Part shown: piece after piece, positions 20,576 through 51,645 of the stretch
Layout of the letters: every line of letters begins with the position of its first letter
Numbering within the stretch: the stretch's first letter is position 1
Assembly: GCA_025060135.1 (NCBI GenBank)
Contig: JANXCY010000004.1
Coordinates: forward strand, 34,341 to 98,340
DNA length: 64,000 bases
Origin: Anaerolineae bacterium
GTDB lineage: Bacteria > Chloroflexota > Anaerolineae > B4-G1 > DUEL01
Direction of reading: 5' to 3'
Position numbers and translations under genes: made by a program
Notes under the pieces: generated by a model
Told to the model about the DNA's origin: nothing
Databases searched by the model: none
Seen by the model: only the letters and a program-made list of their open reading frames with translations

Positions 20576-23416
20576 TCATCGGGCAGTGGGGAGGGTGAAG
20601 GCGAAACGGCTTCCCCGGCCCGGCTCGCTCTCCACACTGACCTCACCGCCCAGTTTTTCCACAATCCGTTTAACGATGGAAAGCCCCAGGCCGTGTCCCT
20701 CGCCCTTGGAGGTGAGCCGGGTAAAGGGGGTAAACAACAGGCCCTGTTCCTCGGGAGTCAGGCCGGGGCCGTTATCCTGTACCCAGAAACGGACCATGCC
20801 GGGGGAGTCGGGTGGATAGTCCGCGCCCAATTCCACGCGTGGCGGCTGCCCGCCGTATTTCAGCGCGTTGCTGATGTAGTTGAACCACACTTCCTCCACC
20901 CATGGTCGGTAGCCCAGAGCAACGGGCCAGGTCGGGGGGAGAATCACCTGGGCACCGGAATGCTCAATCTGGTCGCGCACGCGCGCCAGAACATCGGCCA
21001 CAATGCCTGCCATGTCCAGAGGATGGCTCTCTACTGCCTGAGAACGGACGGTGGCGAGTTTCAGGAGGGCATCAATGACGTCGGTCATTTTATGCCCGTA
21101 CTGGGCAATGCTCCGAAGATGCTCGCGCAGCGCGTCGGAGGAGAAGGCCGGAAGGTTATCTTCCAGCATTTCCGCATAGCCGACGATGAGCGCGACCAGA
21201 CTGCGGAGGTCGTGGGCGACCATTTGGGCAAAGGCATCCAGTTCTTCGTTGCGGGCCTCCAGTTGGTCGGCATACTGGCGCAGTTGCGCTTCCACCTGTT
21301 TGCGCCGGGCAATTTCCCGGTGGGTGAGTGCCAGGGCCTGGGATTTGGCGATCGCCAGGGCGATATGGGATGCCATGTATTCGGCCCGCGCGATCTCGTC
21401 GGGGGAGAAGCGACGGGGCTGCTTAAACCCAATGAGCACAGCGCCCAGTTTCTGCTCTCCGATCATTAACGGAAGAACCAGCAGAGAACGGGCGGAGAAT
21501 CGGGCCGCCTGATGAGGGCTAAGGTACGGGGTATGCAGCACATCCTCCATCGCCAGTACGTGTCCGAAGTGGAGGGCAGGTTCCGTCACCCTCGCTAGGG
21601 TGTCTTCCGGTGGAGCGGAAAGGGTAAAGACCACCTCCGGCATCGGCCCGTACGCCGCGACGGGAACAGGCACCCCGCGCGCCTCATCCCAGAGGGCAAG
21701 GTAGCAAACGTCAGCCTGGAAGAGTTCCCCCAACCGGTCGGCCAGGGCCTGGAGCATGTTCTGGAAGTCGGTGGTGCCGATAGCAATGCGGATCATTTCG
21801 TTGAGCGTCGCCAGATAGCGGGTCTGCCCCTCCAGCAAGCGGTCGGCACGGGCGCGCTGAATCGCGGCGCCCACCAGATTGGCAGCGGCCTGCAGCGCAG
21901 CGATTTCCGCCTCCGTCCATTCGCGCTCAAAGCGGCACTCGTCAAACCCGATCAGCCCCCACCATTCCGGGCCCACGAAGATGGGCACGGCTGCGATGGA
22001 ACGGATGTCCTGGGCCGCCAGGACTTCCTGCTCGCTGAGAGGAAAGTTCCGCACCAGGCCCCAGACGGCCTCTCTCCGGGTCATCCTCTGGACCCAGCGC
22101 TGGAATCCCCACTTCTCGTAGGAAAAGTTCTGCAGGTCGGGGTTATCCATCTGCGGAGTAACACCCGGTGCCGTCCATTCGTAGCGCTGGCTGGTCAACA
22201 GGTCGCCATCGGGTCCTGGATGGTTTTCAAAGATATAGGCCCGGCTGACGTCGGTGGCGTTCCCCAAAGCAGCCAGGACATCGGGCAGTTCCCGTTCCCA
22301 ATCCGGTGCCCGCAGCAGGCGGTCGGCCGCGCTCGCGACCGCTTCCAGAATGGCGTCCCGGCGGCGGAGGGCATCTTCGGCCCGCTTCAGTCCGGTGATC
22401 TCGCGCAGGACGGCCACCCGGCCCACAAGCCGTCCCCGCCGGTCGTGGATGGGGGAGAGGCGCAGGTTGTACACCCGCTGCTGGATGCCCTCCCCAAGGG
22501 TGATCTCGGCCTCCGCCTGAAGGACGTCATGATATTGCTCCACCAGATCGTGCCGCCGGGTTACCACCTGCCGGATCGGCCGGCCCACCAATTCGGCGGC
22601 CGGTCGGCGGAAAATCTGCTGGGCCGCCGGGTTCAGGTCCACGATCCGGCTCTGCCGATCCAGCACAATCACCCCATCGGTTATCCCATCCACCACCGCG
22701 CTGCGCGCAATGGGGATAATATCCAGCAACCGGAATCGGGAAAGGCCCCAGACCATCGCCGGGCCCGCCAGGGCAAACATCAGGGAGGTCAGGTCTACCG
22801 GATGGAGGGGATTCGGCCCGAAGACGTAAAGCGCGTTGGCCATCCAGGGAAGCATGACACCAGATAGGAGGGCGGCAATTTGCCCCCGGTAGGGAGGCGG
22901 GGAACGGAAAAGTTCCTTCAGGAGGAGAACCACGCCCAAGAAGAGCAGAAGGTAAGAGTACGCGAAGTGGACCCACCACCAGACCCCGTGGGTAACGCTC
23001 AGCAGTACATACGGCCCCCGGATCACCGACTCCACCCGGCTCCAGAGAAGGCCATAACGGTCATTGGTCCAGGCCGCCAGCCATGTGAGGGCCGGTTCCA
23101 GAGTCAACATGAGCCAGCGGCGGCCTGCCAACCAGTTCCCTCGACCGGTATACTGGATGGCCAGGGCCAGCCAGGCCGCAGGTACCGTCACGACACCCAG
23201 GTATCCCATCCGGGCCCAGAAGAGCGCGAAACGGGGTTCCCGAGCGGCCAGTTCCAGAGCATAGCAGCCAGACCACTCAGCCGTTGCCAGCAGGAGGAGG
23301 GCCAGCGGAAACGATCCCGGTGCAGGCCGTCGCCGCCAGGCCATCAGGGCCAGAGCAAGGGCCAGCCCCCCTGCCCCAACCAGCGGCCAGATGTAGGGAG
23401 GAAACTGCCAGGACAT
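20576..23416 (-). CDS. Sensor histidine kinase with an N-terminal 7TM region, PAS, two GAF-like regions, HisKA and HATPase_c.
   Basis: It has an N-terminal multi-TM block, the H-box VAHDLRS, N/G boxes (NALKYG, DNGPGL, GHGLGLSIV), and long GAF-like segments between. Confidence 0.9.
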   Translation of the reverse strand: MSWQFPPYIWPLVGAGGLALALALMAWRRRPAPGSFPLALLLLATAEWSGCYALELAAREPRFALFWARMGYLGVVTVPAAWLALAIQYTGRGNWLAGRRWLMLTLEPALTWLAAWTNDRYGLLWSRVESVIRGPYVLLSVTHGVWWWVHFAYSYLLLFLGVVLLLKELFRSPPPYRGQIAALLSGVMLPWMANALYVFGPNPLHPVDLTSLMFALAGPAMVWGLSRFRLLDIIPIARSAVVDGITDGVIVLDRQSRIVDLNPAAQQIFRRPAAELVGRPIRQVVTRRHDLVEQYHDVLQAEAEITLGEGIQQRVYNLRLSPIHDRRGRLVGRVAVLREITGLKRAEDALRRRDAILEAVASAADRLLRAPDWERELPDVLAALGNATDVSRAYIFENHPGPDGDLLTSQRYEWTAPGVTPQMDNPDLQNFSYEKWGFQRWVQRMTRREAVWGLVRNFPLSEQEVLAAQDIRSIAAVPIFVGPEWWGLIGFDECRFEREWTEAEIAALQAAANLVGAAIQRARADRLLEGQTRYLATLNEMIRIAIGTTDFQNMLQALADRLGELFQADVCYLALWDEARGVPVPVAAYGPMPEVVFTLSAPPEDTLARVTEPALHFGHVLAMEDVLHTPYLSPHQAARFSARSLLVLPLMIGEQKLGAVLIGFKQPRRFSPDEIARAEYMASHIALAIAKSQALALTHREIARRKQVEAQLRQYADQLEARNEELDAFAQMVAHDLRSLVALIVGYAEMLEDNLPAFSSDALREHLRSIAQYGHKMTDVIDALLKLATVRSQAVESHPLDMAGIVADVLARVRDQIEHSGAQVILPPTWPVALGYRPWVEEVWFNYISNALKYGGQPPRVELGADYPPDSPGMVRFWVQDNGPGLTPEEQGLLFTPFTRLTSKGEGHGLGLSIVKRIVEKLGGEVSVESEPGRGSRFAFTLPTAR

Positions 23417-24680: not shown

Positions 24681-24905
24681 ATTGGTCGGGCGTCGGTCAG
24701 CCGCCGCTGGGCGCCGACGAAAGGGCCCCACCGAGATCGCTTCGCTTCGCTCGCGATGACCTCGCTCGCTCGAGGCGTCGCCCTGGCCTGGGCCTTCGGC
24801 CGGGTTGCTTCACTCCGTTCGCAACAAGGTCGGCCTTCGCCGACCCTCCATCGGGCATCCGCGAAGGCGACGCTGGGCCTGGAGGGCCCAGGGAAGTTCG
24901 TTGCA
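24681..24905. repeat. Dispersed structured repeat, family A, copy 2.
   Basis: See copy 1. The inner stem is GTTGC/GCAAC here and GTGGC/GCCAC in copy 1. Confidence 0.75.
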
Positions 24906-24935
24906 TTCTTGAGAAGCCGCCGGCAATCCACGATG

Positions 24936-24964
24936 TTGCCTCTTCTTCCAAAAACGGGTATAAT
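24936..24964 (+). promoter_or_regulatory. Near-consensus promoter directly abutting the miaB start (leaderless-type).
   Basis: TTGCCT - 17 nt - TATAAT. Only 8 nt separate the -10 from the ATG at 24973. Confidence 0.5.
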
Positions 24965-24972
24965 TTAGGGAA

Positions 24973-26322
24973 ATGAAATATCATATCTGGACCATTGGGT
25001 GTCAGATGAATGAAGCGGACTCCCAACGGCTGGCGGCGGCGCTGGAGCACCTGGGATACGCTCCGACCCCCCGGGCCGAGGAGGCTGATGTCATTGTGCT
25101 GAACACCTGCGTCGTCCGGCAGCAGGCGGAAGACCGGGTCTACGGACGTCTGAATTCCCTGCGCCCCCTGAAAGCCCGCCGCCCGGACGTGGTCATCGGC
25201 CTGATGGGATGTCTGGTGGGCCGCCGGGACCCGACCCCCCTGCGCGAGCGGTTCCCATGGGTAGACGTCTTCGCCCCACCCTCCGACCCCGGGCCGCTGC
25301 TGGACTATCTGGCCGAGCGGGGAGGGGCCGATATGGGACGGGCATTGATAGCAGAAGAGGCGGCCCGTTTGATCCCCGTCCCTTTTCGTCTGCCGCGCCA
25401 GGGAAATGGCCACCCGGTTACCGCTTACGTTCCCGCCGTCCTGGGCTGTTCCCATGCCTGCACCTACTGCATTATCCCCTACCGCCGGGGGCCGGAACGC
25501 AGCCGACCGATGGAGGAGATTCTGGCCGAGGCACGCGCACTGGTCGCCCAGGGAGTGAAAGAAATCACCCTGCTGGGTCAGATCGTGGATCGCTACGGAT
25601 ATGACCTGTACCCTCAGAGCGACCGTCCTCCGCTGGTGAGCCTGTTGGAGCGGCTCCACGAAATAGAAGAGCTGGAACGCATCCGCTTCCTGACCAGCCA
25701 CCCCTCCTGGATGACGGACGATCTCCTGGAGGCGGTAGCCCGTCTGCCCAAAGTCTGCGAGCACCTGGAGGTGCCGGTGCAGGCGGGGGATGACCAAATC
25801 CTGGCCCGGATGCGCCGAGGCTACACCGTCGACGACTATCGCCGCCTGGTGAAACGAGCCCGCGCGCTCATCCCGGGTGTCTCTATAGCCACTGATGTCA
25901 TCGTGGGCTTCCCAGGAGAGACAGAGGCCCAGTTCAGGCGGACGTATGACCTGCTGGCGGAACTGCGCCTGGATAAGGCCCATATCGCCCGATATTCCCC
26001 CCGTCCTCAAACCCTGGCGGCCCGCCGCTATCCAGATGACGTTCCGCCAGAGGAGAAGGAGCGCCGCCGCCAGATGCTGGATGACCTGCAGGCCCGCATC
26101 GCGGCCGAGATCAACGCCCAACTGGTGGGGCAAGAAGTAGAAGTGCTGGTAGAGGGCCAGAAAAAGGGCCGCTGGTGGGGCCGTACCCGGACCGACAAAC
26201 GGGTCTTCTTTGAAAGCCCGCACGACCGGACCGGTCAGCGGGTCCGGGTGCGCATCACCTGGGCCGGGCCCTGGTCGCTGATCGGGACCGTTACTGAACT
26301 CGAAATCCGGAGTGGGGAGTAG
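24973..26322 (+). CDS. miaB: tRNA-i6A37 methylthiotransferase (radical SAM, TRAM).
   Basis: MKYHIWTIGCQMNEADS..., radical SAM CSHACTYCIIP, and a C-terminal TRAM-like region. Confidence 0.9.
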   Translation: MKYHIWTIGCQMNEADSQRLAAALEHLGYAPTPRAEEADVIVLNTCVVRQQAEDRVYGRLNSLRPLKARRPDVVIGLMGCLVGRRDPTPLRERFPWVDVFAPPSDPGPLLDYLAERGGADMGRALIAEEAARLIPVPFRLPRQGNGHPVTAYVPAVLGCSHACTYCIIPYRRGPERSRPMEEILAEARALVAQGVKEITLLGQIVDRYGYDLYPQSDRPPLVSLLERLHEIEELERIRFLTSHPSWMTDDLLEAVARLPKVCEHLEVPVQAGDDQILARMRRGYTVDDYRRLVKRARALIPGVSIATDVIVGFPGETEAQFRRTYDLLAELRLDKAHIARYSPRPQTLAARRYPDDVPPEEKERRRQMLDDLQARIAAEINAQLVGQEVEVLVEGQKKGRWWGRTRTDKRVFFESPHDRTGQRVRVRITWAGPWSLIGTVTELEIRSGE

Positions 26323-26325
26323 GCC

Positions 26326-28359
26326 TTGACCGAGTCTCAGAAGCGGAATCCTTCCGAGCCCGAAGAAGAGACCCATAAGCCGCCGGACGATCTTTCCACC
26401 CGGGTCATCCCGGGACTGGCGGCCCGGGTGGGGAGCCGGGTGTTGGCGGAGCCAGCCGTACCGGCTCCTGCCGCCGCCCCACCGACCCGTCCGATTGGGC
26501 CAGTGTCCCCCTCGCCGAAGCGGACGGAAGGGTGGCTCCCAGAAGGAACCGTCCTCCAGAACCGCTACCGCATCCTGGGCGTCCTGGGAGCCGGGGGGAT
26601 GAGCGTCGTCTATAAGGCCCAGGACCTGCGCTTCCCCAAGGTTACCCGCCTTTGTGCCATCAAGGAGATGCTGAACACCACCACCGACCCCCGACTGCGG
26701 GCCCTGATGGTTCAGAACTTTGAGCGGGAAGCCAGCATCCTGGCCACCCTCAGCCATCCAGCCATCCCTCAGGTGTACGATTACTTCACCGAAGGCGACC
26801 GGGCGTATCTGGTAACGGAATTTATCTCAGGCAAAGACCTGGAAGCGCTGCTGAACGAAACAGAGGGCTTCTTCTCGGAGGCCCAGGTGGTTCAGTGGGC
26901 GATCCAGATTTGCGATGTGCTCACGTATCTCCATACCCGCCAGCCCCAACCGGTCGTCTTCCGAGATATGAAGCCCTCCAATATTATGCTGGATGACCAG
27001 GGGCGGATTCACCTGGTGGATTTCGGCATCGCCAAAGTGTTCCAGAGCGGAGAGAAGGGAACGATGATCGGCACGGAGGGGTACTCTCCGCCGGAGCAGT
27101 ACCGGGGGATCGCCGAGCCCCGGGGGGACATCTACGCGCTGGGGGCCACACTCCACCATCTGCTGACCAAACAGGACCCCCGCCTGGAGCCGCCTTTCTC
27201 GTTCCAGAAGCGACCCATTCACCAGTATAACCCGGCCGTCTCTGCCGAACTGCAGGAGATTATCTACCGGGCCCTGGAATACGACGTCCAGAAACGGTTC
27301 GGGTCGGCGGAGGAGATGAAACGGGCCCTTCTCTCCCTCAAATCCGCCCGTGGGCTGGCCGCCACCGCCTACATCTCCGCACCGGAAACGGTTCGACCCG
27401 ACGCGCTGAAAGTGATCTGGCAGTTCGCCTGCGAGGACGAAGTGCGCTCCAGCCCCTGCATCCACGAGGGTATTCTCTACATCGGTGCCTACGACAACAA
27501 CCTATACGCCCTGGATGCCGAAACGGGGAAGTTTCTCTGGAAATATGCTGCCGAGGGCGGCATTGCTTCCTCTCCGGTAGTGGCCGAGGGGAGAGTCTTC
27601 TTCGGGTCCATTGACCATTCACTCTACGCCGTCAACGCCGAGACGGGACGCCTTCTGTGGACCTGTCCCACCAAAGGGCGCATCTTTGCTTCGCCCCGCG
27701 TCCAGTTCGGACACGTCTTCATTGGCTCTGACGACCATCGCTTCTACGCGGTGAATGTGGCCAACGGGCGAGTGGCGTGGAGTGTAGAGACAGAAGGGGC
27801 CATCCGCTCCACCCCGGCCATTGGCCCGGATGCTATCTACTTCGGCGACGAGGCAGGCATCCTGAACGCGGTGGGTGTGAATGGTCGTCTGCTCTGGCGA
27901 TTCCGGGCCCGACGGGCGTTAACCTCTTCCCCCGCGATCGCCCACGACCTGCTCTATGTGGGCTCTCAGGACTGGTTCGTCTATGCACTGGACCTGCGGG
28001 CGGGCTGGGTAGTCTGGCGTTACCGCACCGATGGGCCGGTGGTCTCCTCTCCAACCGTGGTTGGGAACACGCTCTACATTGGCTCGGCCGACGGGCACGT
28101 GTACGCCCTGGATGCCACCAACGGCTATCTGGTCTGGCGGTACCGGACCGGGGGACAGGTTACCTCTTCGCCGACCGTCCACCAGGGCGCGGTGTACGTG
28201 GGGTCTGTGGACGGGTGCCTTTATTCGCTGGATGCCCAAACCGGGCAACTGCGCTGGCGCTTCCAGACCGGCGGCCCGGTGGTCTCTAGCCCTCGGGCAG
28301 TGAACGACATCGTCTATTTCGGCTCGCTGGACCACAATGTCTACGCGTTGCCGATTTGA
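26326..28359 (+). CDS. Ser/Thr protein kinase with a C-terminal PQQ-type beta-propeller.
   Basis: GAGGMSVVYKA, VVFRDMKPSNIML, DFGIAK and GTEGYSPPE mark the kinase. At least 6 repeats of the ...LYALDA.TG...W type follow. Confidence 0.9.
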   Translation: MTESQKRNPSEPEEETHKPPDDLSTRVIPGLAARVGSRVLAEPAVPAPAAAPPTRPIGPVSPSPKRTEGWLPEGTVLQNRYRILGVLGAGGMSVVYKAQDLRFPKVTRLCAIKEMLNTTTDPRLRALMVQNFEREASILATLSHPAIPQVYDYFTEGDRAYLVTEFISGKDLEALLNETEGFFSEAQVVQWAIQICDVLTYLHTRQPQPVVFRDMKPSNIMLDDQGRIHLVDFGIAKVFQSGEKGTMIGTEGYSPPEQYRGIAEPRGDIYALGATLHHLLTKQDPRLEPPFSFQKRPIHQYNPAVSAELQEIIYRALEYDVQKRFGSAEEMKRALLSLKSARGLAATAYISAPETVRPDALKVIWQFACEDEVRSSPCIHEGILYIGAYDNNLYALDAETGKFLWKYAAEGGIASSPVVAEGRVFFGSIDHSLYAVNAETGRLLWTCPTKGRIFASPRVQFGHVFIGSDDHRFYAVNVANGRVAWSVETEGAIRSTPAIGPDAIYFGDEAGILNAVGVNGRLLWRFRARRALTSSPAIAHDLLYVGSQDWFVYALDLRAGWVVWRYRTDGPVVSSPTVVGNTLYIGSADGHVYALDATNGYLVWRYRTGGQVTSSPTVHQGAVYVGSVDGCLYSLDAQTGQLRWRFQTGGPVVSSPRAVNDIVYFGSLDHNVYALPI

Positions 28360-29287
28360 GGAATCAATCCATCCTACCCCTGGAGTCAAGGCCTTGCACT
28401 GGAAATCGTGGCTTCACCGTTTGCGGTGGATGTTCCAGCGGGAGAGAGAACGGCCCGCACCTCCGACCACCCCCGGGCCTGAGCCTCGCCGTCCCCCCCG
28501 GATGGAAGTGGGGTGGGCCACCGATGTAGGGCGACAACGAAGTCTCAACGAAGACGCGGTGCTGGTGATGGAGGCCTGGCAGGAGGGACACTACGCCATG
28601 CCCCCGGTGGGTCTCTTCCTTCTGGCAGATGGCATGGGAGGCCACCGGGCCGGTGAGGTGGCCAGCGCGCTGGCGGTGCGGACGGCGGCTCGCCACATCC
28701 TGCAGAATCTATGGGCCGCGCTTTCGGACCAGCATCACAGCGCTGATGAGCCATCCCTCCAAGAGGTATTGACCGACGCCTTCCGTCGGGCGCACGAAGC
28801 CGTTACCGGGCGTGTGCCCGGCGGCGGAACGACCCTGTTGTGCGCGCTGCTGCTGGGGGATCGGGCCTACATCGCCAACGTTGGAGACAGCCGGGCCTAT
28901 CTGGTCTCTCCCCAGGGCTGTCGGCAGATTACCCGAGACCACTCGGTGGTGGATATGATGGTAGAACTGGGACAGATGACGGCGGAGGAAGCGGCCCGTC
29001 ACCCCCAGCGGAATGTGCTCTACCGAGCAGTGGGACAGCGGGGAACGCTGGAAGTGGATACGTTTATCTGCACCCTGTCGCCCGGTGAGGTCCTGCTGCT
29101 CTGCTCCGATGGCCTGTGGGAAACCGTGGGAGGAGCAGAAATCGTTCGGGTGGTAACGGCCTCCGCCTCGCTTCAGGAGGCGTGCGACACCCTGGTGGAG
29201 AAGGCCAATCAGGCCGGAGGCCGGGATAACATCAGCGTCATCCTCGCCGCACCCGGTTGTGAGGGAAGTGTGGCTTCCGGAGTGTAA
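28337..29287 (+). CDS. PP2C-family Ser/Thr phosphatase.
   Basis: ATDVGRQRSLNEDA, LADGMGGHRAGEVAS, NVGDSRAY and GGRDNISV. The start is uncertain: 28337 overlaps the kinase by 23 nt, and internal Met codons exist. Confidence 0.85.
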   Translation: MSTRCRFEESIHPTPGVKALHWKSWLHRLRWMFQRERERPAPPTTPGPEPRRPPRMEVGWATDVGRQRSLNEDAVLVMEAWQEGHYAMPPVGLFLLADGMGGHRAGEVASALAVRTAARHILQNLWAALSDQHHSADEPSLQEVLTDAFRRAHEAVTGRVPGGGTTLLCALLLGDRAYIANVGDSRAYLVSPQGCRQITRDHSVVDMMVELGQMTAEEAARHPQRNVLYRAVGQRGTLEVDTFICTLSPGEVLLLCSDGLWETVGGAEIVRVVTASASLQEACDTLVEKANQAGGRDNISVILAAPGCEGSVASGV

Positions 29288-29289
29288 GG

Positions 29290-30765
29290 ATGCGGGAGGG
29301 CGAAAAGGACTTATACGCTATACTGGGGGTCTCCCCACTGGCCACCCAGGAGGAAATCCGACACGCGTACCGCAAACTGGTCCGGCGGTTCCACCCGGAT
29401 AGCGGTTCGGAAGAGGCCTCGGCGGAGCGGTTCCAAGAGGTCCAAGAAGCCTATCAGGTCCTGGGAGACATCGCCCGCCGGCAGGCCTACGACCGGCGAC
29501 GGGCCGAGCGGGGGGAGAGCCCGACCACCGCCCTGGCATGGGACATCCTGGTCAGCCGCCAGCAACTCCTGGCGCTGCCGGAAGAACAGATGCTCTACCT
29601 GCTGGTGGACTTGAAGCCGTCCGGTCAAACGACCTTCAAACGGATTCCCCTGAACCTGTGCCTGGTCATTGACCAGAGCACCTCTATGGACGGCGACCGG
29701 CTGGACCACGTCAAAGTGGCCGCCCACCAGATTGTGGACGAGTTAACCAAAGAGGACATCGTCGGGGTGGTCGCGTTTAACGACCGGGCCACCATCATGC
29801 ATCCCAGCCAGGCCCTGACCGAACCGCTGCGAGTCCATGCCCGCATCTCCTCAATCTGGGCCGGCGGAGGGACGGAGATCTTCCAGGGATTGCGGGCCGG
29901 CCTGGAAGAAGTCCGCCGATTCCATCGCAAAGGCGAGATGCTCAGCCATGTCATTCTGTTGACCGATGGGCGGACCTATGGCGATGAGGAACATTGCCTT
30001 GCCGAAGCCCGACGGGCAGCGGCGGAGGGGATCGAGATCACAGTCCTGGGCATTGGCGAAGATTGGAATGACGTCTTTCTGGACCGGCTGGCCCGTCAGA
30101 CCGGAGGGACTTCTGCCTACATCGCGTATCCTCAGCAGGTTCGCGGGGTGATGCGGGACCTGATCCAGCGGCTTTCCATGCTGTTGGCCCGGAACGTTAC
30201 GCTGACGGTTCGTTCCACCGAACGGGCATGGGTAGAGAACGCATTCCGCGCGGCCCCGTTTATAGAACGCCTGAGCGCCGAGGGAGGAGTGTACACGCTG
30301 GGCAATTTGCTGGCCGGAAGGCCCATGCAGGTCCTCCTGGAAATCGTAGTGCAGGAACCAACGCCCGGGTTCCATCGCCTGGCCCAACTGGAGATGAACG
30401 CGGAAATCCCCTCGTTCCACCGGCAGGAACGGCTCATCTTTGACCTGGAGCGGGAGTTCGTATCCGAAGAGGTGGAAGAACCGGTATCGCCGATCTTGGT
30501 GAATGTCCTCAGCCGGCTGAGCATCTTCCGGATGCAGGAGCAGGTCTGGAAGGCGCTGGATACCGGACGGACCGAGGAGGCCCGGCAGCGGCTGGAGACC
30601 ATTGCCACCCGCCTGCTGGATATGGGGGAGGCTGAACTGGCACACGTGGCCTTGCTGGAAGCCGGACGGATCGCCCAGGGCGGGCAAATGTCCAGCAAGG
30701 GCGAGAAGGTGATCCGTTACGGCACCCGGGGCCTGGGTTTAAAAGAAGGGAGGGAATGGGAATGA
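29290..30765 (+). CDS. J-domain (DnaJ-like) + von Willebrand factor A domain protein with an uncharacterised C-terminal half.
   Basis: DLYAILGVSPLATQEEIRHAYRKLVRRFHPD carries the HPD motif. The vWA MIDAS is LCLVIDQSTSMDG...GGGTEI...LLTDG. Confidence 0.85.
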   Translation: MREGEKDLYAILGVSPLATQEEIRHAYRKLVRRFHPDSGSEEASAERFQEVQEAYQVLGDIARRQAYDRRRAERGESPTTALAWDILVSRQQLLALPEEQMLYLLVDLKPSGQTTFKRIPLNLCLVIDQSTSMDGDRLDHVKVAAHQIVDELTKEDIVGVVAFNDRATIMHPSQALTEPLRVHARISSIWAGGGTEIFQGLRAGLEEVRRFHRKGEMLSHVILLTDGRTYGDEEHCLAEARRAAAEGIEITVLGIGEDWNDVFLDRLARQTGGTSAYIAYPQQVRGVMRDLIQRLSMLLARNVTLTVRSTERAWVENAFRAAPFIERLSAEGGVYTLGNLLAGRPMQVLLEIVVQEPTPGFHRLAQLEMNAEIPSFHRQERLIFDLEREFVSEEVEEPVSPILVNVLSRLSIFRMQEQVWKALDTGRTEEARQRLETIATRLLDMGEAELAHVALLEAGRIAQGGQMSSKGEKVIRYGTRGLGLKEGREWE

Positions 30766-31304
30766 TAGAGTGTCCATCCTGCAGCAAGCAGCATCGGTTG
30801 GGCACCCTATTCTGCACCGAATGCGGCGTCTATCTCCCAACGAGCAAGACGTTGCGGACCGAGCCGTTCCCCACCGATGAACTGGCGGCGCCTCGCGCCG
30901 CAACCTGGGAAGTGGAAACGTTGGAACCTCAGCGAGAACGAGCCCCCCAGGTGGTGCGAGTGCGCATCCTGCATACCCAGCGGGAAGTCGTTCTTCCCGC
31001 CCTGCCCGAACTGCTGCTGGGGAGACTGGACCCAACCCATGGGATTTTCCCCCATCTGGACCTGGGCGTAGAGGATGGGTTAAAAATGGGGGTGTCCCGG
31101 CGCCATGCCCGGATTACCCAGCGGGAAGGCAAGGTGTACATAGAGGACGTGGGAAGCGCCAACGGCACCTTCCTGAATGGCCAGCGCCTGACCCCTTATC
31201 TGCCGTATCCCCTTCCCAAAGAATCCGAGGTCCAGTTGGGCCGCCTGCGCCTGCACGTTACGATTGGTACCGGTGAGGGGACAGAGCAAGCATCGGTCCG
31301 TTAA
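30756..31304 (+). CDS. Zinc-ribbon + FHA domain protein.
   Basis: CPSC-x12-CTEC lies at the N-terminus. The FHA core is LGRLDP...VSRRHARITQREGKVYIEDVGSANGTFLNGQRL. Confidence 0.85.
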   Translation: MGMIECPSCSKQHRLGTLFCTECGVYLPTSKTLRTEPFPTDELAAPRAATWEVETLEPQRERAPQVVRVRILHTQREVVLPALPELLLGRLDPTHGIFPHLDLGVEDGLKMGVSRRHARITQREGKVYIEDVGSANGTFLNGQRLTPYLPYPLPKESEVQLGRLRLHVTIGTGEGTEQASVR

Positions 31305-31351: not shown

Positions 31352-31594
31352 ATGCCGATGACGGTTCTGATTCATATGATGAACGAAGACCCGATTGTGG
31401 CGGAAATTGAGCGCGTTCCGGAACCCACGGACCAATTTCTGGTTTGTGAGAACCCCCGCCGCCGGGACGGACGGGAAATCCAGTACCTCCTCCCGGAAGT
31501 TCGCTCGTTGATCCTCCCATGGCACCGGATCCATTGTGTGGAGATTCTGCCCACCGGTGAGGAAGAGCAATTGGTAACGTTCGTACGGGAATAA
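31352..31594 (+). CDS. Small hypothetical protein (80 aa), predicted mostly beta.
   Basis: Track ORF. AGGAGG lies about 8 nt upstream, the composition is normal, and it ends 3 nt before the response-regulator gene. I recognise no motif. Confidence 0.55.
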   Translation: MPMTVLIHMMNEDPIVAEIERVPEPTDQFLVCENPRRRDGREIQYLLPEVRSLILPWHRIHCVEILPTGEEEQLVTFVRE

Positions 31595-31597
31595 CGG

Positions 31598-32341
31598 ATG
31601 AGCGGGAAACAATCCTCCGGCCCTCTCCTCCTCATCGTGGATGACGAGGAAAAAATCCTCCGGTTCGTACGTATGAACCTGGAACTGGAAGGGTTTCGAA
31701 TCATCACGGCGACATCGGGAATCGAAGCACTCCAACGGGTTCGCTCCGTTCACCCGGACCTGATTCTACTGGACGTGATGATGCCGGACATGGATGGCTT
31801 TGAGACACTCCGACTTCTGCGAGAGTTCTCCGACGTGCCCGTCATTATGCTGACGGTTCGCTCCGATGAGGACGATATCGTCTACGGATTGCGCCTGGGC
31901 GCAGATGACTACATCACCAAACCCTTCAGCATACGGGAACTGGTCAGCCGTATCCACGCCGTCCTCCGGCGGGCCCGTCCGATGGTTCCACCGGAGTCCG
32001 CCGTCCTGAAGATTGACGACTATCTCAGCGTGGATTACAACCTTCAGGAGGTGATCGTGGGGGGAAAGCGAGCGAAACTCCGCCCCACGGAGTTTCGTCT
32101 CCTCAGCGTGCTGATTGAGAACGCCGGATGGGTGGTCCCTCAGGAAACCCTGCTGACCAAAGTTTGGGGGCCCGAATACCGGGATGAGACCCACTACGTC
32201 CGTTTATATATCGCCTATCTCCGCAAGAAGATTGAGCCAGACCCTTCCAACCCGCGCTACATTTTCACCGAGCGAGGGGTAGGGTACCGCTTTGTGGATT
32301 TCCGACGGGCTGCAGAAACAGGGGCAGGAGGAAAGCCATGA
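31598..32341 (+). CDS. OmpR/PhoB-family response regulator (receiver + winged helix).
   Basis: LLIVDDE...[14 protein letters not shown]...MLTVRS...DDYITKPF, then [11 protein letters not shown]...GVGYRF. Confidence 0.9.
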
Positions 32342-32844
32342 AGTCCTGCAAAGTAGTCATCACCGGCGCATTCAACACCGGGAAGAGCGCCTTTATCCAG
32401 GCGGCCTCTGACATCGCCGTCGTCAGCACAGAGAAGCGCATCACCGATGCCCTGTCCCAGGTAAAGGAAACCACCACGGTGGCCCTGGATTACGGACAGA
32501 CCACGGTGGAAGGGTGGCGATTTCACCTCTACGGGACACCCGGCCAGCCGCGCTTTGAGTTTATGTGGGATATTCTGGCTCGGGATGGCGATGCCCTCCT
32601 GGTCTTGGTGGATAGCACCGACCGCTCCACCCTGACGCTGGCCCGCCAACTCCTGCGACGCCTGGCCCGTCGGCGAATGCCTTATCTGGTGGTAGCGACC
32701 AAACAGGACGGACATCGTCCCATGCCTCTGCCGGAGATTGCCCGGGCCCTGGGGGTATCTTCCCGACAGGTGGTCGCCTGCGATCCCCGGCAGAGGGCCA
32801 GCACGCACGCGGTGCTGGCCCACCTCGCCCGGTTATTGGGGTAA
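32338..32844 (+). CDS. Small Ras-like GTPase of the MglA/CvnD (COG2229-like) type.
   Basis: G1 is GAFNTGKS, G3 is YGTPGQPRF and G4 is ATKQD. Its ATG overlaps the regulator's stop (ATGA). Confidence 0.8.
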
Positions 32845-33129
32845 TCTCTGCTCCGGGGCAGCCAACGCCTTCAGCGGCCCCACCACCTGCACATCCACCG
32901 GAATCCCCTCTATCTCCTTCGGGATGAGGTCCCCCGGCGCCAATTCCTCCGGTGGCACCTTTTGGGTGACCGAGACGATGAGGGCCAGTTCGCCCGTATA
33001 CTGCCCACCCCGCTGGCGGAGGCCGATGCCCACCCCAACGACGTTCGCTTTGCGCATCAACTCCGCCTCATGCGCCCTCTTGATCGCCTGAACGCGCGCC
33101 ATCTCATCCGATTGCCCCATTTCCCCCAC
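32833..33129 (-). CDS. Hypothetical protein (98 aa).
   Basis: Track ORF. It is the last gene of the alaX-MBL strand, with normal composition (…ELMRKANVVGVGIGLRQ…). Its 3' end overlaps the convergent GTPase gene by 12 nt. Confidence 0.5.
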   Translation of the reverse strand: MGEMGQSDEMARVQAIKRAHEAELMRKANVVGVGIGLRQRGGQYTGELALIVSVTQKVPPEELAPGDLIPKEIEGIPVDVQVVGPLKALAAPEQRLPQ

Positions 33130-35340: not shown

Positions 35341-35460
35341 AAATGCCGAAAGCCGCGTAGCGCAGGCTGTGAGCCTGTAATTGAGCCTGTATGCGGCAGG
35401 CCTGGCAGCCTGCGCCACAGCGCCACCAGTGAAAGGACCTGAATGTTCAGATAGGCTCTC
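35341..35460. repeat. Mosaic intergenic repeat, family B, copy 1.
   Basis: It shares modules with the copies at 46808, 47821 and 61822: GTAGCGCAGGC-N5-GCCTG, GGCAGCCTG, and a ...CCTGAAT... tail. Confidence 0.7.
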
Positions 35461-38089
35461 ACCGAGGGGCCGACACGCTGGGATGAATAGGTAGAGTGAA
35501 GATAAACCGGGCCCCCTGGCCGGGCTGGCTTTCCACCCAGATACGGCCTCCGTGCGCCTCCACCGCCAGTTTGCAGAACGCGAGCCCGATGCCTGTGCCG
35601 CGCACCGGCTGATGAGGAAGGCGAACAAAACGGTCAAAGATACGTTGCTGCTCTTCCGGAGGAATGCCCGGACCGGTATCGGATACGGTAAAGCGAAGGG
35701 TATCCGCCGAGGGAGCATCCACCTCCACCCGTACATGTCCTCCGGGCGGGGTAAACTTGATTGCGTTATCCAGCAGGTTAATCACCGTTCGCAGGAGGAG
35801 ATTCCGGTCGCCGGTCAACACTGGGAGCCCTTCAGGGAGGTCGGAATCCAAGTGAATCTCCCGGGCCACGGCCACCGGGCCCATCTGTTCCACCGCCTCC
35901 TGCACCATCTGCCGGACATCTATAGCCTGGGGGGTCAGTTCCGCCTTCCCGGATTCCAGACGAGCGATGTCCAGAATAGAGTCAATCAACGCAAAGAGCC
36001 GCTCCCCGCTGCGCTCCGCGACCGAGAATAATTGCTCCAGCGAAATCCCCATCGTGGGGTCCTGAACCGTCGCTCGGATGAGTTCCAGACTGCTCATGAT
36101 CGAGGAAAGCGGATTGCGGAGGTCGTGGATAATCATATGGGTCAGGTCCTCCCGCACTTTCTCCAATTGCCGCCTTTCGGTGATGTCGTGAAGGACCCAC
36201 TGGATGTATGGGGTACGAGCATGGAAAATCCGGGTGGCTCGCACTTCAAAGGGAAGCCGTTGCCCCTCCCGGGTGGTCATCTCCAGATAGCCGAAAATAT
36301 CTTCCCCCTGCAGTCCTCGCTCCAGCCACTCCCGAGCCTCTTGGGGAGCGGAAGTCAGAGGGAACATATCCCGATGGAGGAGTTCCTCCCGGGTGTACCC
36401 CAACATCTGGCAGAATTTCCGGTTGACATCGGTGATCCGGCCCTGAGCGTCGGTGATCAAGATGGGGTCGGCGCTGTTTTCAAAGAGGCTGGAGTACCGT
36501 TCTTCCGCATCCCGGGCGCGGTTAAAGTGGCGAGCGTTCTGGATGGCGCTGGCGGCCAATGCCGCCACATTCAGCAACAGTTTCATTCCCCCTTCGTCCA
36601 GCGTCCCTTCCAGCGGGTTGATCGCTTCCACCACTCCCAGAACCTCTCTTCCCAGCCGGATAGGGACGGCGATGACCGTGCGGGTCCGAAAACCCGTCTC
36701 CTGATCCACGCCAGAGTACCAGCGGGGGTCCTGCTCCACCGAGGGGACCACCACGGGAAGGCCCGATTGGGCGACCCAGCCCGCGATACCCTGACCGGGC
36801 TTCAGGCGGACCCCAACCACCTGGCTGGCGGCCGCGCCCGTCGCGACCCGAAAGACCAGTTCACCGGTCTGCTCATCCACCAGGGCCACCGACGCGGCCT
36901 CCACCCGAAAATGCTCCCGAACACTTTCCAGTAGGGAGCGGAGGACGTCGTCCATTTCCAACGAAGCCGCCAGCGCCTGCCCGGTGCGGTGGAGAAACGC
37001 GACCTCCTCCAATTGTCGCTGGGTCTGCTGGAGCAATTGGGCGTTGGCGATCGCGATGGCAGCGTGGTCGGCAAAGGCCGCCACGATCCCGGCATCCTCC
37101 CGGGTATACATGTTCGGCTGCAGGCTGTGCACCGCGAGTACCCCAATAACTGTTCCTCGGGCCACCAGGGGCGCTCCGATCCAACTGCGGATCGGAGGGG
37201 CGCCCGGGATGTTCGGCCAACCCTCCTCACTCTGGATGTCGGCACAGACCAGGGGCTCCCGGGCGGCCACCACCCGGGCCATCAGGTGGCGGCCTTCCAC
37301 CGGAAGGGTCAGATTGCGAACCGTCTCCGGATGCTCCAGCCCGTGCCATGCGCGGATGACCAGTCGCGGACCCTCCACCAGAAAGATGGACGCGCTATCG
37401 TGAGGTACCACCTGGCTCAGGGATGCCAGAATCAATGAGAGGACCTCATCCAGGTCCAGCGTGGCCGTGAGCGCGCGGGCGATCTCCCGCAGGGTATCCG
37501 CGAGATGGCGACGTTGTTCCTCCAGAGCAAACAGCCATGCGTTCTCCAGAGCCACCGTCGCCTGATCGGAAATAAACCGGAGAGCCCGCAGGTCATCATC
37601 GTCAAAATAGCCAGGCTGAGGATGCAAGCAGGTCAGGATGCCGATGGCCCGTCGGGAGGAGATCAGGGGAACACAAAGGGCAGCACGAACAGGAACACCA
37701 GATTCGGCTTCCGGCAATCTCCGCCAGCGAGAGTCTGCCTCTACATCATCTATCCGCACAGCCTGGCGGCTTCGGAGCACCCAGCCGCCCAAACCCTCCG
37801 CCAGCACCAGCCGGGCGGCCTCCGTGCTCCCCTGCCGGAATCGCCCCTCTCGCAGCAGAAGCACCGAGACGACCCGCTCCTCTTCGTCCACCAGGATGAG
37901 GCTCCCCAAGTCGGCTTCCACTGCCTGAACGGCCAGCGCCAATGCCCGCCGGGCCAGGCCATCTAAGTCTAAGCCCGAGGTGAGTTCCCGAACCACTTCC
38001 ATCAACCAACCGGTCCCTCGGGCCCAGCGCCGTCTCCACCGTTTCATTAGAGTTTGTCCTTTACTCTCCAGACTCCCTGACGCGTTCAC
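35459..38089 (-). CDS. Multi-GAF/PAS sensor histidine kinase (876 aa, cytoplasmic).
   Basis: It has at least 3 GAF-like blocks, a PAS (…SSLFENSADPILITD…), the H-box IIHDLRNPLSSI, and HATPase N/G boxes. Confidence 0.9.
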   Translation of the reverse strand: MNASGSLESKGQTLMKRWRRRWARGTGWLMEVVRELTSGLDLDGLARRALALAVQAVEADLGSLILVDEEERVVSVLLLREGRFRQGSTEAARLVLAEGLGGWVLRSRQAVRIDDVEADSRWRRLPEAESGVPVRAALCVPLISSRRAIGILTCLHPQPGYFDDDDLRALRFISDQATVALENAWLFALEEQRRHLADTLREIARALTATLDLDEVLSLILASLSQVVPHDSASIFLVEGPRLVIRAWHGLEHPETVRNLTLPVEGRHLMARVVAAREPLVCADIQSEEGWPNIPGAPPIRSWIGAPLVARGTVIGVLAVHSLQPNMYTREDAGIVAAFADHAAIAIANAQLLQQTQRQLEEVAFLHRTGQALAASLEMDDVLRSLLESVREHFRVEAASVALVDEQTGELVFRVATGAAASQVVGVRLKPGQGIAGWVAQSGLPVVVPSVEQDPRWYSGVDQETGFRTRTVIAVPIRLGREVLGVVEAINPLEGTLDEGGMKLLLNVAALAASAIQNARHFNRARDAEERYSSLFENSADPILITDAQGRITDVNRKFCQMLGYTREELLHRDMFPLTSAPQEAREWLERGLQGEDIFGYLEMTTREGQRLPFEVRATRIFHARTPYIQWVLHDITERRQLEKVREDLTHMIIHDLRNPLSSIMSSLELIRATVQDPTMGISLEQLFSVAERSGERLFALIDSILDIARLESGKAELTPQAIDVRQMVQEAVEQMGPVAVAREIHLDSDLPEGLPVLTGDRNLLLRTVINLLDNAIKFTPPGGHVRVEVDAPSADTLRFTVSDTGPGIPPEEQQRIFDRFVRLPHQPVRGTGIGLAFCKLAVEAHGGRIWVESQPGQGARFIFTLPIHPSVSAPR

Positions 38090-38727
38090 CCGTCAAACTC
38101 CACAACCTCCCGCCCCTGCAATTTCTCTAATACCTTCTCCACAATCAGGTCCAGGTGGTGGGAATTGACCACAAAATCCAGTCGGTCCGCAGGAATGGTC
38201 AGCACCGGGCAGAGGTGGAAACCCGCGATCCATTCCTCGTACAATTCGTTCAACTGCTCTAGGTACCCAGGAGAGATGTTTCGTTCAAACGGGCGTCCTC
38301 GCTGAGCAATGCGGGTCATCAACGTGGGGACCGATGCTCGCAAATAGATGATCAGGTCGGGTGGGGGCAACAACGCCCGCATCACCTCATACAGTTCCCA
38401 ATAACTGCGATAATCCCGCCCGCTCATCAGCCCCTGCCGGTAGAGGTTGCGGGCAAAGACCTCCGCATCTTCGTAGACGGTCCGGTCCTGCACAACAGAA
38501 TGGGGCCGCTGGAGCAACTGATGGTGATGGCGCAGCCGCCGGGAGAGGAAAAAGACCTGGGAATGGAAACTCCAGCGGGCCATATCCTGATAGAAATCGG
38601 CCAGGTAGGGATTATCGGAAACCGCCTCATAAAACGGCTCCCACCCCAGGCGCTCCCCCAGCATACAGGTCAGGCTGGATTTGCCGACCCCGATGTTCCC
38701 AGCGATGGCGACAAACCATTTGTTCAT
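38086..38727 (-). CDS. Deoxynucleoside kinase family protein, paralogue 1 (214 aa).
   Basis: P-loop IAGNIGVGKSS, ...NPYLADFY...FHSQVFFLSRR...QDRTVYED.. and the arginine-rich lid RIAQRGRPFE. The ATG at 38727 overlaps the stop of the upstream kinase, and its own stop overlaps the next kinase's ATG. Confidence 0.85.
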   Translation of the reverse strand: MNKWFVAIAGNIGVGKSSLTCMLGERLGWEPFYEAVSDNPYLADFYQDMARWSFHSQVFFLSRRLRHHHQLLQRPHSVVQDRTVYEDAEVFARNLYRQGLMSGRDYRSYWELYEVMRALLPPPDLIIYLRASVPTLMTRIAQRGRPFERNISPGYLEQLNELYEEWIAGFHLCPVLTIPADRLDFVVNSHHLDLIVEKVLEKLQGREVVEFDG

Positions 38728-41700: not shown

Positions 41701-42008
41701 GCATCCTGGATAATGATGGGGCCTGGCTCGCGAAGCAGGCGGGAACCGGGCACCTGATGGAAAACCTCCGTCAGGAAAGAGAGGTAGTCCGGAGAGAGCC
41801 CCTGAGCACCGCCCACCGTCAGGCGGTCATGCTCTGCGTCGTAGATATAGATCGCCCCCCGGTCAGCATGACTGTTCTGGATGCCCGCGGCCACAATCTC
41901 GGCCAGGACCTCCTCCAGTTCAGTGCCGACCAGAAGATGACGAACAACGTCCGGATCGCTGATCGGTCGCTGCCGGATGTGCGTGGAGAGCCCAGGTTTT
42001 CGGGGCAA
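38724..42008 (-). CDS. Giant multi-GAF sensor histidine kinase (about 1095 aa).
   Basis: It has about five GAF-like repeats (recurrent ...ALENARLYQ... helix ends), the H-box VGHELRTPLTLIQGY, and HATPase boxes. The start is uncertain. I use the in-frame TTG at 42008, 1 nt after the upstream stop; the track ATG at 42152 would overlap the upstream gene by 143 nt. Confidence 0.85.
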   Translation of the reverse strand: MPRKPGLSTHIRQRPISDPDVVRHLLVGTELEEVLAEIVAAGIQNSHADRGAIYIYDAEHDRLTVGGAQGLSPDYLSFLTEVFHQVPGSRLLREPGPIIIQDAWNDPEARVLWEAARREGFRSYVVLPLAYRQKVLGALVFYSNQRHSWGPEEMRFYQALADQAALVLAHLSLSRQTQRWMDILAAFREVDQRILSTHNLEEVLWVIAGTIQRVLGVSTLYIGLYDGVLDELHVPVMIDRGERQPPLHLKLSEEAGLAGWVIRTGQPLWINDTQQEELPVPAIRIGDPTRSLAVLPLEVHNRIVGVLSAQSYLPYAFQPEDRWMLEGIAAQAAIAIENVRLLQESRQRAAQLEMAAEVARAAASILDVRRLLSETAELVRERFNLYYVGIFLLDESGRWAVLRAGTGEAGRKMLEMGHKLRVGGPSMIGWCTAYGKPRIALDVGKEAVRFDNPLLPATRSEMALPLLSRERVIGAMTIQSDRPAAFTPEDVTVLKTVADQLATAIENAHLYQESLRRQAQAWVLREVMLAAASTLDFDQVLQRTIQTLRAALGVEFLAVILPDESGSFLRVHPSQIGYTLPAESFRIPLDRSVSGMVFQTGRAMLIGDVRAVPFYYEGHPEVRSEVCVPLRVGTEVIGVLNVESRQPNAFREEDLVFFTAIAGELAIALENARLYQREQRRREEAESLYRAALAMTTSLDLREVLERILTELQRVVPYDSASVQLLHDGKLEIIAGRGFPNTEELLGVTIDPAAGDNPNAQVIRTREPLILEDAQALYERFRQPPHAAADIHAWMGVPLLYGDRVIGMLTVDKHEPGFYTREHARVATAFAGQAAIAMENARLYQQLEEQSAELTVALRRLQNLDRLRDQMIQNVGHELRTPLTLIQGYVELLLNDELGTLHPLQRSALQVVYERTQTLARLIGNLTALRSVRPEAMRIAPIAVPEGVALVVEHYARRARNAGIEIVTRIPVDLPLILADQEHFLLALSQLVDNAIKFSPQGGVVQIRAWAEGEWVKIAVQDEGVGIPEEHLSHIFERFYQVNGSTTRRFGGMGIGLALVWEIMEAHCGSVQVESEVGKGSTFTLSFRRAGEMP

Positions 42009-42009
42009 C

Positions 42010-42924: not shown

Positions 42925-42977
42925 ACTCCGGAAAGGGCGAAAAGTCAAGACGACCCGCGCGAACTCGCGTGGGGGGC

Positions 42978-43006
42978 TTGACAAAACGGGATTCTGCGCG
43001 ATAACT
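42978..43006 (+). promoter_or_regulatory. Candidate promoter of aor.
   Basis: TTGACA - 17 nt - ATAACT. It leaves a leader of about 135 nt before the ATG at 43147. Confidence 0.35.
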
Positions 43007-43146
43007 GATTTACTGGCTCCGGAGCGCCGGGAGTATCTCCATGGCCTGAGGCGGACGGAGAGACCAGTATTCGGATAAGGAGCAGGGTTTTGTGACCACC
43101 TGGGCAAAGCCCTGCCGCCCTGGAACAGCGACGCCCAGGAGGGATC

Positions 43147-51406: not shown

Positions 51407-51455
51407 CTGAATCGCAAAGGGTGGAGCGATATCTTCAGGTTCAGGCGAACCGTCC

Positions 51456-51544: not shown

Positions 51545-51550
51545 CCTCGC

Positions 51551-51624: not shown

Positions 51625-51645
51625 CTGGGGATAAAGCCCCAGCGT

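Follow-up and report, generated by a model that had tools for sequence, protein, structure and literature searches.

A probable bacterial counterpart of the archaeal ArnA-ArnB phospho-switch in a class-wide operon of Anaerolineae with a J-domain fusion

The window analysed here is a stretch of 64,000 nucleotides from an Anaerolineae bacterium of the phylum Chloroflexota (contig JANXCY010000004.1, positions 34,341 to 98,340). It carries, on its forward strand, a block of genes encoding a Ser/Thr kinase, a PP2C phosphatase, a protein joining a J domain to a vWA domain (J-vWA) and a protein with a zinc ribbon and an FHA domain. We consider it probable that this block belongs to a vertically inherited, cytoplasmic Ser/Thr phospho-switch operon of Anaerolineae, the core of which is a bacterial counterpart of ArnB and ArnA, and we propose a mechanism for it. 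The core is likened to ArnB/ArnA because the vWA protein has the scaffold fold of ArnB, matches it in sequence and is encoded next to a partner with the layout of ArnA. To our knowledge, ArnA/ArnB is the sole vWA-FHA phospho-switch that has been dissected biochemically and structurally, and it has so far been treated as archaeal. Neither a bacterial J-vWA protein nor this operon was found described in the literature searches made here.

Results

An ArnB-type scaffold fused to a J domain

The J-vWA protein has clear Pfam matches at its N-terminus (DnaJ, 4.7e-22) and in the centre (VWA, 2.5e-19). An AlphaFold (AF2) model made from 15 orthologues (pLDDT 88.3, pTM 0.80) folds the remainder of the protein into a beta-sandwich, which is split by the inserted vWA domain, and a helix bundle (Table 1). 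The original prediction for this DNA had seen about 250 residues without recognisable domain past the vWA domain; about 200 of them model as beta-sandwich and four-helix bundle. ArnB and ArnE have been reported to share one topology, namely an eight-stranded sandwich that accommodates a vWA domain and is followed by a C-terminal helix bundle (PMC6509490; PMC12852372). In a Foldseek comparison with the PDB, ArnB of the ArnAB complex ranked first (8s05_A; E 3.6e-23, TMt 0.70, 412 columns aligned). The bacterial, tripartite Caci_2163, which has this fold in common with the J-vWA protein, ranked second (4fx5; TMt 0.72), ArnE/vWA2 fourth (5a8j; E 1.3e-19, TMt 0.61), and ITIH1 and Sec23/24 chains came next.

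The relationship to ArnB is also visible in the sequence. A phmmer search with residues 80-491 matched 8s05_A at E 7.7e-11, placing residues 123-412 on ArnB 42-320, and the homology thus reaches past the vWA domain into the sandwich. Likewise, the profile of the J-vWA family (A1) scored 55.8 bits against ArnB and 60 bits against 4FX5, within a range of 56-64 bits for ArnB, 4FX5 and ITIH4. Judging from the model, we take the J-vWA protein to be an ArnB-type tripartite scaffold with a J domain joined to its N-terminus.

An exhaustive phmmer search with residues 80-491 yielded 349 representative clusters at E <= 1e-30; a search with residues 289-491 alone, aimed at J-less relatives, returned 16 proteins, mostly fragments. 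Across 135 full-length representative clusters, the five residues of the MIDAS, a metal ion-dependent adhesion site, are invariant (135/135). Conservation is almost as strict in the C-terminal motif [Y/F]-G-T479-R-x-L482, where T479 is kept in 134, R480 in 128 and L482 in 129 of the 135 clusters, in J-bearing and J-less proteins alike. A second motif, T440-R/H-L-L (T440-R-L-L here), is well conserved and sits in the four-helix bundle. FHA domains read phosphothreonine, and many of them prefer Thr with Leu at the +3 position. We propose T479 as the docking phosphothreonine because it has Leu at +3, lies at the end of the last helix and belongs to the domain that bears the phosphosites in ArnB. 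By these features of the sequence, T479 is the best candidate for a phospho-acceptor and FHA docking site, with T440 as a further candidate. Two other architectures were noted: a J-vWA relative of 699 aa with a C-terminal FGE-sulfatase (formylglycine-generating enzyme-like) domain (P0285), and a 3177-aa protein with nine vWA-matching stretches (P0261).

An adaptor with the layout of ArnA

The adjoining gene encodes a protein composed of a CxxC-x10-CxxC ribbon, a variable linker and an FHA domain. Across 65 orthologues, the cysteines are conserved, and so are the motifs of the FHA domain for binding phosphothreonine (GR, SRxH and NGT). ArnA has been described as a zinc ribbon (C21, C24, C35, C38) followed by a linker and an FHA domain (PMC12852372), and the cysteine spacing of the ribbon in the window is identical to it; in addition, the FHA protein weakly matches 8s05_C and 5a8i. 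In the archaeal complex, the zinc finger of ArnA docks on the sandwich and the helix bundle of ArnB, and the C-terminal bundle, when phosphorylated, is bound by the FHA domain (PMC6509490; PMC12852372). In its layout, the Zn-ribbon-FHA protein resembles an ArnA-like adaptor.

A kinase and a phosphatase in the same operon

The kinase protein combines a kinase domain with a PQQ-type beta-propeller (Pfam Pkinase, 9e-42; Beta-prop_ACSF4, 3e-73; PQQ_2, 9e-57). Its catalytic motifs are kept in 64 orthologues, and the kinase domains of loci with the canonical operon are 54-91% identical. No transmembrane segment was found in the kinase, and therefore all components of the four-gene block, the kinase propeller included, are taken to be cytoplasmic. 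AfsK of Streptomyces has the same kinase-propeller architecture, yet the likeness ends there: the NCBIfam AfsK model (NF053615) gives the kinase 247.7 bits, far below its equivalog cutoff of 1300.

The phosphatase (Pfam PP2C, 9e-19) scores 229.6 bits with the NCBIfam model Stp1_PP2C, the cutoff of which is 230, and by this similarity it is a Ser/Thr phosphatase of the Stp1/IreP type. The initial ~55 residues of its open reading frame are unconserved among orthologues, and the real start is therefore possibly the ATG at 28502.

The operon is conserved throughout the class

At least 577 genomes encode a J-vWA relative, and we examined 80 species-representative loci from among them. All 80 are from Chloroflexota (Anaerolineae, Thermoflexales, Caldilineaceae, Ardenticatenia and some labelled Chloroflexia), and the operon is syntenic in every one. 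Counting only loci in which the respective position could be assessed, the kinase gene lies upstream of the vWA gene in 66/66 and the PP2C gene is present in 61/66, while the gene for the FHA protein follows downstream in 75/77. Three genes beyond the four-gene block recur as well: one for an 80-aa protein, located between the FHA and response regulator genes (69/73), the response regulator gene itself (54/67) and a gene for a small GTPase (31/54), which is an accessory member of the operon.

Gene fusions link the same components. In one protein (P0304, 687 aa), the kinase is joined to an ArnB-like vWA protein, and in another case a fusion of Ser/Thr kinase and FHA domain is encoded beside a J-vWA gene (L068, 6043-7287). 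Synteny, such Rosetta-stone fusions and the presence of J-less relatives in the same operon are evidence for joint action of these components.

The J domain is canonical but dispensable

Structurally, the J domain of the J-vWA protein is canonical: J domains of DnaJ proteins in the PDB match it at E ~1e-24, the signature residues of helices II and III are present, and the model places the HPD motif between helices at residues 20-34 and 45-58. J domains recruit Hsp70/DnaK. The original prediction had suggested that the vWA component could couple a phospho-switch to the chaperone machinery and had named HPD conservation in orthologues as a check. Within the clade of the window, this idea remains plausible, as HPD is invariant in the set A1 and conserved to at least 97% in 75 orthologues with at least 40% identity. 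In other lineages the J domain is degenerate or missing. In a census of the 150 best-ranked representative clusters, HPD is kept in 98 of the 110 J-bearing clusters and lost in the other 12 (giving, for example, RFPED or FNPEN), and ~27 full-length clusters have no J domain.

The J-less lineages carry the same operon. Two of them (L083 and L084) encode the kinase-propeller protein, PP2C, the vWA protein, the FHA protein, an 81-aa protein and the response regulator, and a third (L085), the protein cluster of which includes a Kouleothrix fragment, is similar. On a rough neighbour-joining tree, the distribution of the J domain calls for ~12 events of gain or loss. The J domain is, then, an add-on that is selected in the clade of the window and dispensable for the core switch. 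At the third J-less locus (L085, 8990-15278), the 81-aa gene has directly after it a serine recombinase (resolvase) and then a pPIWI_RE module; this insertion at the position of the response regulator is probably a mobile defence element in the 3' end of the operon.

Canonical J domains with HPD are also found in the co-chaperones DnaJ, CbpA and DjlA. However, the J-vWA protein has neither the G/F region, nor the zinc-finger domain, nor the C-terminal client-binding domains, and carries an ArnB-type scaffold instead. The linker between the J domain and strand 1 of the sandwich spans only ~8 residues, and the region at this strand is where the ribbon of ArnA docks on ArnB (PMC12852372). Because the J domain joins the scaffold near the ribbon-docking region, partner binding and accessibility of the J domain could, by analogy with the archaeal complex, affect each other.

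Extent of the operon and its downstream genes

The four forward-strand reading frames of the original prediction, each abutting or overlapping its neighbour, were confirmed at their coordinates. All of their domains are matched in Pfam (E 1e-16 to 1e-73), and the motifs FRDMKPSN/DFG, ADGMGGH, HPD, DQSTS and CPSC...CTEC are present and kept in 64-75 orthologues. The block does not end with the FHA gene at 31304, as had been assumed, but runs on through three further translationally coupled genes to 32844, making an operon of 6-7 genes overall (Table 1). Two long antisense reading frames, 24697-26757 (-, 686 aa) and 29851-30687 (-, 278 aa), were rejected as high-GC artefacts; they overlap miaB and the genes for the kinase and the J-vWA protein. 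The sole promoter-like site in this genome sits upstream of miaB, and its consensus match is not above chance. The sequence originates from hot-spring metagenomes, for which the sequencing runs returned were DNA only, with no RNA run among them.

The 80-aa protein has 211 homologues, all of ~80 aa and annotated as 'hypothetical', and no family assignment. Where taxon labels are given, they read Anaerolineae, Anaerolineales or Chloroflexota throughout. Its AF2 model (pLDDT 87) is a five-stranded barrel with an acidic C-terminal tail, and LSm/Sm/Hfq proteins are its closest, though weak, Foldseek matches (E 0.03-0.2, TM 0.5-0.6). The Pfam LSM signature was not detected in it; from the model, the protein is predicted to be Sm/LSm-like. 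The response regulator is of the OmpR family (REC and winged helix in Pfam) with an intact acceptor, Asp59. Its nearest NCBIfam models are RpaB, KdpE and MtrA, all of which score below cutoff, and the operon contains no cognate histidine kinase for it. The small GTPase matches ATP_bind_1, Arf (4e-8) and Ras in Pfam and belongs to the Ras superfamily; its P-loop and TKQD motif are conserved, and Arf/Arl proteins are its best sequence matches in the PDB (E 7e-9).

Table 1. Genes of the operon and features of their products, with positions in the window.
Feature	Position	Strand	Residues	Remarks
Ser/Thr kinase + PQQ beta-propeller gene	26326-28359	+	677 aa	kinase domain ~75-340, PQQ/BamB-like beta-propeller ~350-677 (Pfam)
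PP2C gene	28337-29287	+	316 aa	
J-vWA gene	29290-30765	+	491 aa	
J domain	29290-29508	+	1-73	Pfam DnaJ, model
HPD motif	29392-29400	+	35-37	
Two N-terminal beta-strands	29533-29619	+	82-110	complete the sandwich; DSSP on model
vWA domain	29650-30177	+	~121-296	Pfam VWA
MIDAS D128-x-S130-x-S132	29671-29685	+	128-132	within vWA domain; intact, with T195 and D226
Six C-terminal beta-sandwich strands	30181-30462	+	298-391	model, phmmer, Foldseek
Four-helix bundle	30490-30729	+	401-480	model; counterpart of ArnB C-terminal (RHB) domain
T479 codon	30724-30726	+	479	
Zn-ribbon-FHA gene	30756-31304	+	182 aa	overlaps J-vWA stop by 10 nt
Zn ribbon C6-x2-C9-x10-C20-x2-C23	30762-30830	+	3-25	weak Pfam zinc-ribbon models
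FHA domain	31011-31268	+	~86-171	Pfam FHA 2.3e-16
Sm-like protein gene	31352-31594	+	80 aa	
OmpR-type response regulator gene	31598-32341	+		
Small GTPase gene	32338-32844	+	168 aa	start overlaps response-regulator stop by 4 nt

Genome context

The operon is flanked in the window by genes for pyrB-like, aminotransferase, MiaB, metallo-beta-lactamase (MBL) hydrolase and AlaX-like proteins and by several PAS/GAF histidine kinases; no mobile, defence or ter genes were found near it in the window. A housekeeping signalling module, which the original prediction had entertained as an alternative, fits this lineage-wide syntenic operon amid housekeeping genes. Strict linkage to miaB across the lineage, which the original prediction had also considered, was not observed. 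Instead, miaB is adjacent solely in three close relatives (L001, L003 and L005) and therefore does not belong to the conserved unit.

Within 10 kb of the operon lie the genes of three large sensor histidine kinases, of the types 7TM-PAS-GAF, multi-GAF-PAS and five-GAF (20576-23416, 35459-38089 and 38724-42152, all on the minus strand); in other species, none of them shows synteny with the operon. Other neighbours recur in particular clades and are missing from the window. In ~10 species, the operon is directly followed, on the same strand and 28-300 bp from its end, by one or two hsp20 genes, and a Zn-metallopeptidase gene takes that position in 12 others (these arrangements were seen among loci L007-L022 and L062); a divergent pair of REC and histidine kinase genes is located upstream in ~13 species.

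Other features of the window include a 98-aa reading frame convergent on the end of the operon, with a weak match to NAL1_N (32833-33129, -; E 1.2e-7), and a 953-aa reading frame that matches deoxynucleoside kinases at residues 678-861 only, its initial ~670 residues being unmatched (42010-44871, -). At 51320-52025 (+), a tmRNA gene (Rfam RF00023, 115.6 bits) comes after three tRNA genes.

The gene set is distinct from TerY-P

A vWA protein (TerY), a PP2C and a Ser/Thr kinase together reportedly form the TerY-phosphorylation triad described by Anantharaman, Iyer and Aravind in 2012, and Gao and colleagues are said to have shown in 2020 that this TerY-P system protects against phage. The original prediction had labelled the genes of the window as a variant of this triad. 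The assignment is not supported, as vWA profile scores, PP2C and kinase profiles, fold and genome context all speak against it. For reference, we used the terY1-terX-terY2-terY3-PP2C-kinase cluster of plasmid R478 and compared it by direct profile search on one common E-value scale. The J-vWA profile scored 25.6, 23.7 and 18.5 bits against TerY1, TerY3 and TerY2, respectively, and did so over the vWA core only. Set against the values for ArnB, 4FX5 and ITIH4, these low scores place the vWA domain outside the TerY clade. The PP2C profile did not detect the R478 PP2C (E 7.9), and the kinase profile had no match to the R478 kinase.

Architecture and location differ as well. TerY proteins are standalone vWA domains of ~212 aa or are combined with TerY-C, whereas the vWA protein of the window is tripartite and carries a J domain. 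The R478 PP2C has 545 aa and the R478 kinase is InaA-like, in contrast to the Stp1/IreP-like PP2C and the kinase of AfsK architecture found here. Finally, TerY-P is found alongside ter genes in mobile elements, while the operon of the window is chromosomal, syntenic and class-wide. What the two have in common is a single gene cluster that brings together vWA protein, PP2C and Ser/Thr kinase. PADLOC-DB v2.0.0 gave no match for the vWA and FHA proteins; this negative is uninformative on TerY-P, because the genuine TerY1-3 and PP2C of R478 (L082, 12763-17465) also go unmatched.

Discussion

We have identified a class-wide, previously uncharacterised bacterial operon for a probable ArnAB-like phospho-switch with a J-domain fusion. 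The operon is new, while a switch of the ArnAB type is known from Sulfolobus acidocaldarius, where ArnA and ArnB repress motility. This pair (8S05, 5A8I, 5A8J) provides the best structural match and a significant sequence match to the J-vWA protein. In both systems, the adjoining partner of the scaffold carries a CxxC-x10-CxxC ribbon at its N-terminus, from which a flexible linker leads to an FHA domain, and in both, control is exerted, or in our case proposed to be exerted, by Hanks-type kinases and a Ser/Thr phosphatase. The operon of the window differs from ArnAB in that it is bacterial, adds an N-terminal J domain and includes genes for three further products (Sm-like protein, OmpR regulator and small GTPase). 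It does not belong to the archaellum-regulating Arn network with its ArnC/D kinases and PP2A, given the bacterial host, the PP2C and the AfsK-like kinase. The archaellum is absent in these bacteria, and the regulated target must therefore differ from that of ArnAB.

From domain content, fold relationship, synteny and residue conservation, we infer how the switch might operate. Kinase and PP2C would set the phosphorylation state of the helix bundle in the ArnB-like scaffold, to which the Zn-ribbon-FHA adaptor might be tethered beforehand through its ribbon. Once the scaffold is phosphorylated, the adaptor would clamp on via its FHA domain, and the motif Y-G-T479-R-x-L is the best candidate for the docking site. 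Next to receive the state of the complex could be the co-translated products: the Sm-like protein, the response regulator and, for about half of the lineages, the GTPase. The output of the switch would be transcriptional. In most lineages, including this one, the J domain with its intact HPD may recruit DnaK-ATP to the scaffold or to a client held by the complex or the MIDAS, which would link the switch to Hsp70.

Several observations weigh against a bacterial ArnB/ArnA switch of this kind. The Pfam ArnB_C domain (IPR040929) was not found in residues 289-491 or 400-491 at E values up to 10, the likeness of the helix bundle to that of ArnB is seen at the level of the fold only, and the overall identity of the J-vWA protein to ArnB is merely ~17%. 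For the partner, similarity of the FHA domain to ArnA is generic (E ~1e-4), with OdhI and GarA as the best PDB matches. Sulfolobus relies on a PP2A-type phosphatase and unlinked kinases, whereas the window has PP2C and kinase in the operon; there is hence no operon-level homology to the Arn network. As to the output, response regulator and GTPase are not universal among the loci, and given that lineages without the J domain or without HPD retain the same operon, the core mechanism cannot depend on coupling to DnaK.

The role of the J domain can be read in two further ways. It might make a scaffold of the ArnB/Sec23-24 type into a phosphorylation-gated Hsp70 adaptor, or the availability of DnaK might gate the path from the Ser/Thr kinase to the response regulator; we regard this as possible, though on balance unlikely. 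In the former case, recruitment of DnaK to the scaffold or to a MIDAS-bound client would depend on the phosphorylation state, read by the Zn-ribbon-FHA partner close to the attachment of the J domain. A special form of the favoured model, to which we assign still less weight, holds that the operon is a sensor of proteostasis or heat stress. By virtue of its J domain, the scaffold would be a client or an adaptor of DnaK, and DnaK would here be the input instead of an output: its titration by unfolded proteins would shift the switch, and the regulator would induce chaperone and protease genes. The canonical J domain with its conserved HPD, the hot-spring origin of the sequence and the hsp20 and Zn-metallopeptidase genes directly downstream in other species all suit such a sensor. 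Yet these adjacencies are clade-specific and have no equivalent in the window, neither the window nor the recurrent clusters of flanking genes at the surveyed loci show linkage to dnaK, grpE or clpB, and the operon persists unchanged where J domain or HPD are lost.

Two other readings look beyond the chaperone link, and both appear highly improbable. If the operon were an anti-phage or conflict system, of the TerY-P or another type, the triad would sense infection, with J domain and FHA protein as elaborations. Three domain classes are those of TerY-P, and the kinase domain does match generic defence-kinase models, PD-T4-6 and MAD6 among them, which is expected of any Hanks kinase. Furthermore, GTPase-centred systems with kinase, PP2C and standalone vWA proteins have been described in actinobacteria (Kaur et al., 2020), and Chloroflexota are filamentous, such systems being enriched in multicellular prokaryotes. 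These points are countered by the profile scores and the ArnB-type fold reported above, by the high conservation and synteny in 80/80 species genomes, by neighbours of the housekeeping type and presumed co-transcription with an OmpR-type regulator, and by the lack of a nuclease, protease, pore or other effector domain. Even slighter is the chance that scaffold and Arf-like GTPase form a pair akin to Sec23/24 and Sar1, in which kinase, PP2C and FHA protein would control GTPase-driven assembly at a membrane or the cytoskeleton. In the title of 8S05, its depositors call the complex 'an archaeal ortholog of the Sec23/24 core motif', and in Foldseek the ArnB-type matches are indeed followed by Sec23/24 chains; the GTPase, for its part, has the Arf/Arl similarity described above and a start overlapping the stop of the response regulator. 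However, weak similarity to Arf is common in prokaryotic small GTPases, this one is present in just 31/54 assessable loci, the scaffold is devoid of the gelsolin domain that bears the arginine finger of Sec23, and no membrane-binding element was seen.

A phospho-switch with an ArnB/ArnA-like core, the reading we favour, also has parallels among bacterial systems. The publications on ArnAB name Caci_2163 and YfbK only as structural orthologues. In Deinococcus radiodurans, DRA0331-DRA0334 constitute an operon of vWA, Ser/Thr kinase, FHA and PP2C genes (bioRxiv 10.64898/2026.01.23.701218). Compared by domain content, it has the four domain classes in common with the four-gene block; unlike here, its kinase is transmembrane, its PP2C has an FHA domain of its own and a J domain is not reported. 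The same set of kinase, PP2C, FHA and vWA is met in another setting. In the type VI secretion system (T6SS), assembly of a complex is gated by a phospho-switch in which the Hanks kinase PpkA, the PP2C PppA, the FHA reader Fha1 and a vWA domain act together. The vWA domain of PpkA is periplasmic and fused to the kinase, whereas the proteins of the operon are all cytoplasmic. Membership in the threonine-phosphorylation pathway of the T6SS was rejected, as T6SS genes are absent here.

The gene cluster holds a lesson for annotation: a cluster of vWA, PP2C and Ser/Thr kinase genes need not be TerY-P, tempting as this label may be, and with PADLOC-DB v2.0.0 a negative result is uninformative on this question. 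For experimental work, the operon offers a self-contained set of proteins for reconstitution, which are likely to be well behaved given their thermophilic origin, and the invariant T-R-x-L tail provides a concrete target for mutation. A bacterial counterpart that is conserved throughout a class and equipped with its own kinase and phosphatase would also broaden the evolutionary footing of ArnAB. The fusion to a J domain, present in most lineages and repeatedly degenerate or absent elsewhere, constitutes a testable link between Ser/Thr signalling and Hsp70. If the phosphorylation-gated adaptor proved true, Hanks-kinase signalling would be wired directly to the Hsp70 cycle in bacteria, and this wiring would be built on a protein with the core fold of COPII Sec23/24, with an Arf-like GTPase alongside in about half of the lineages.

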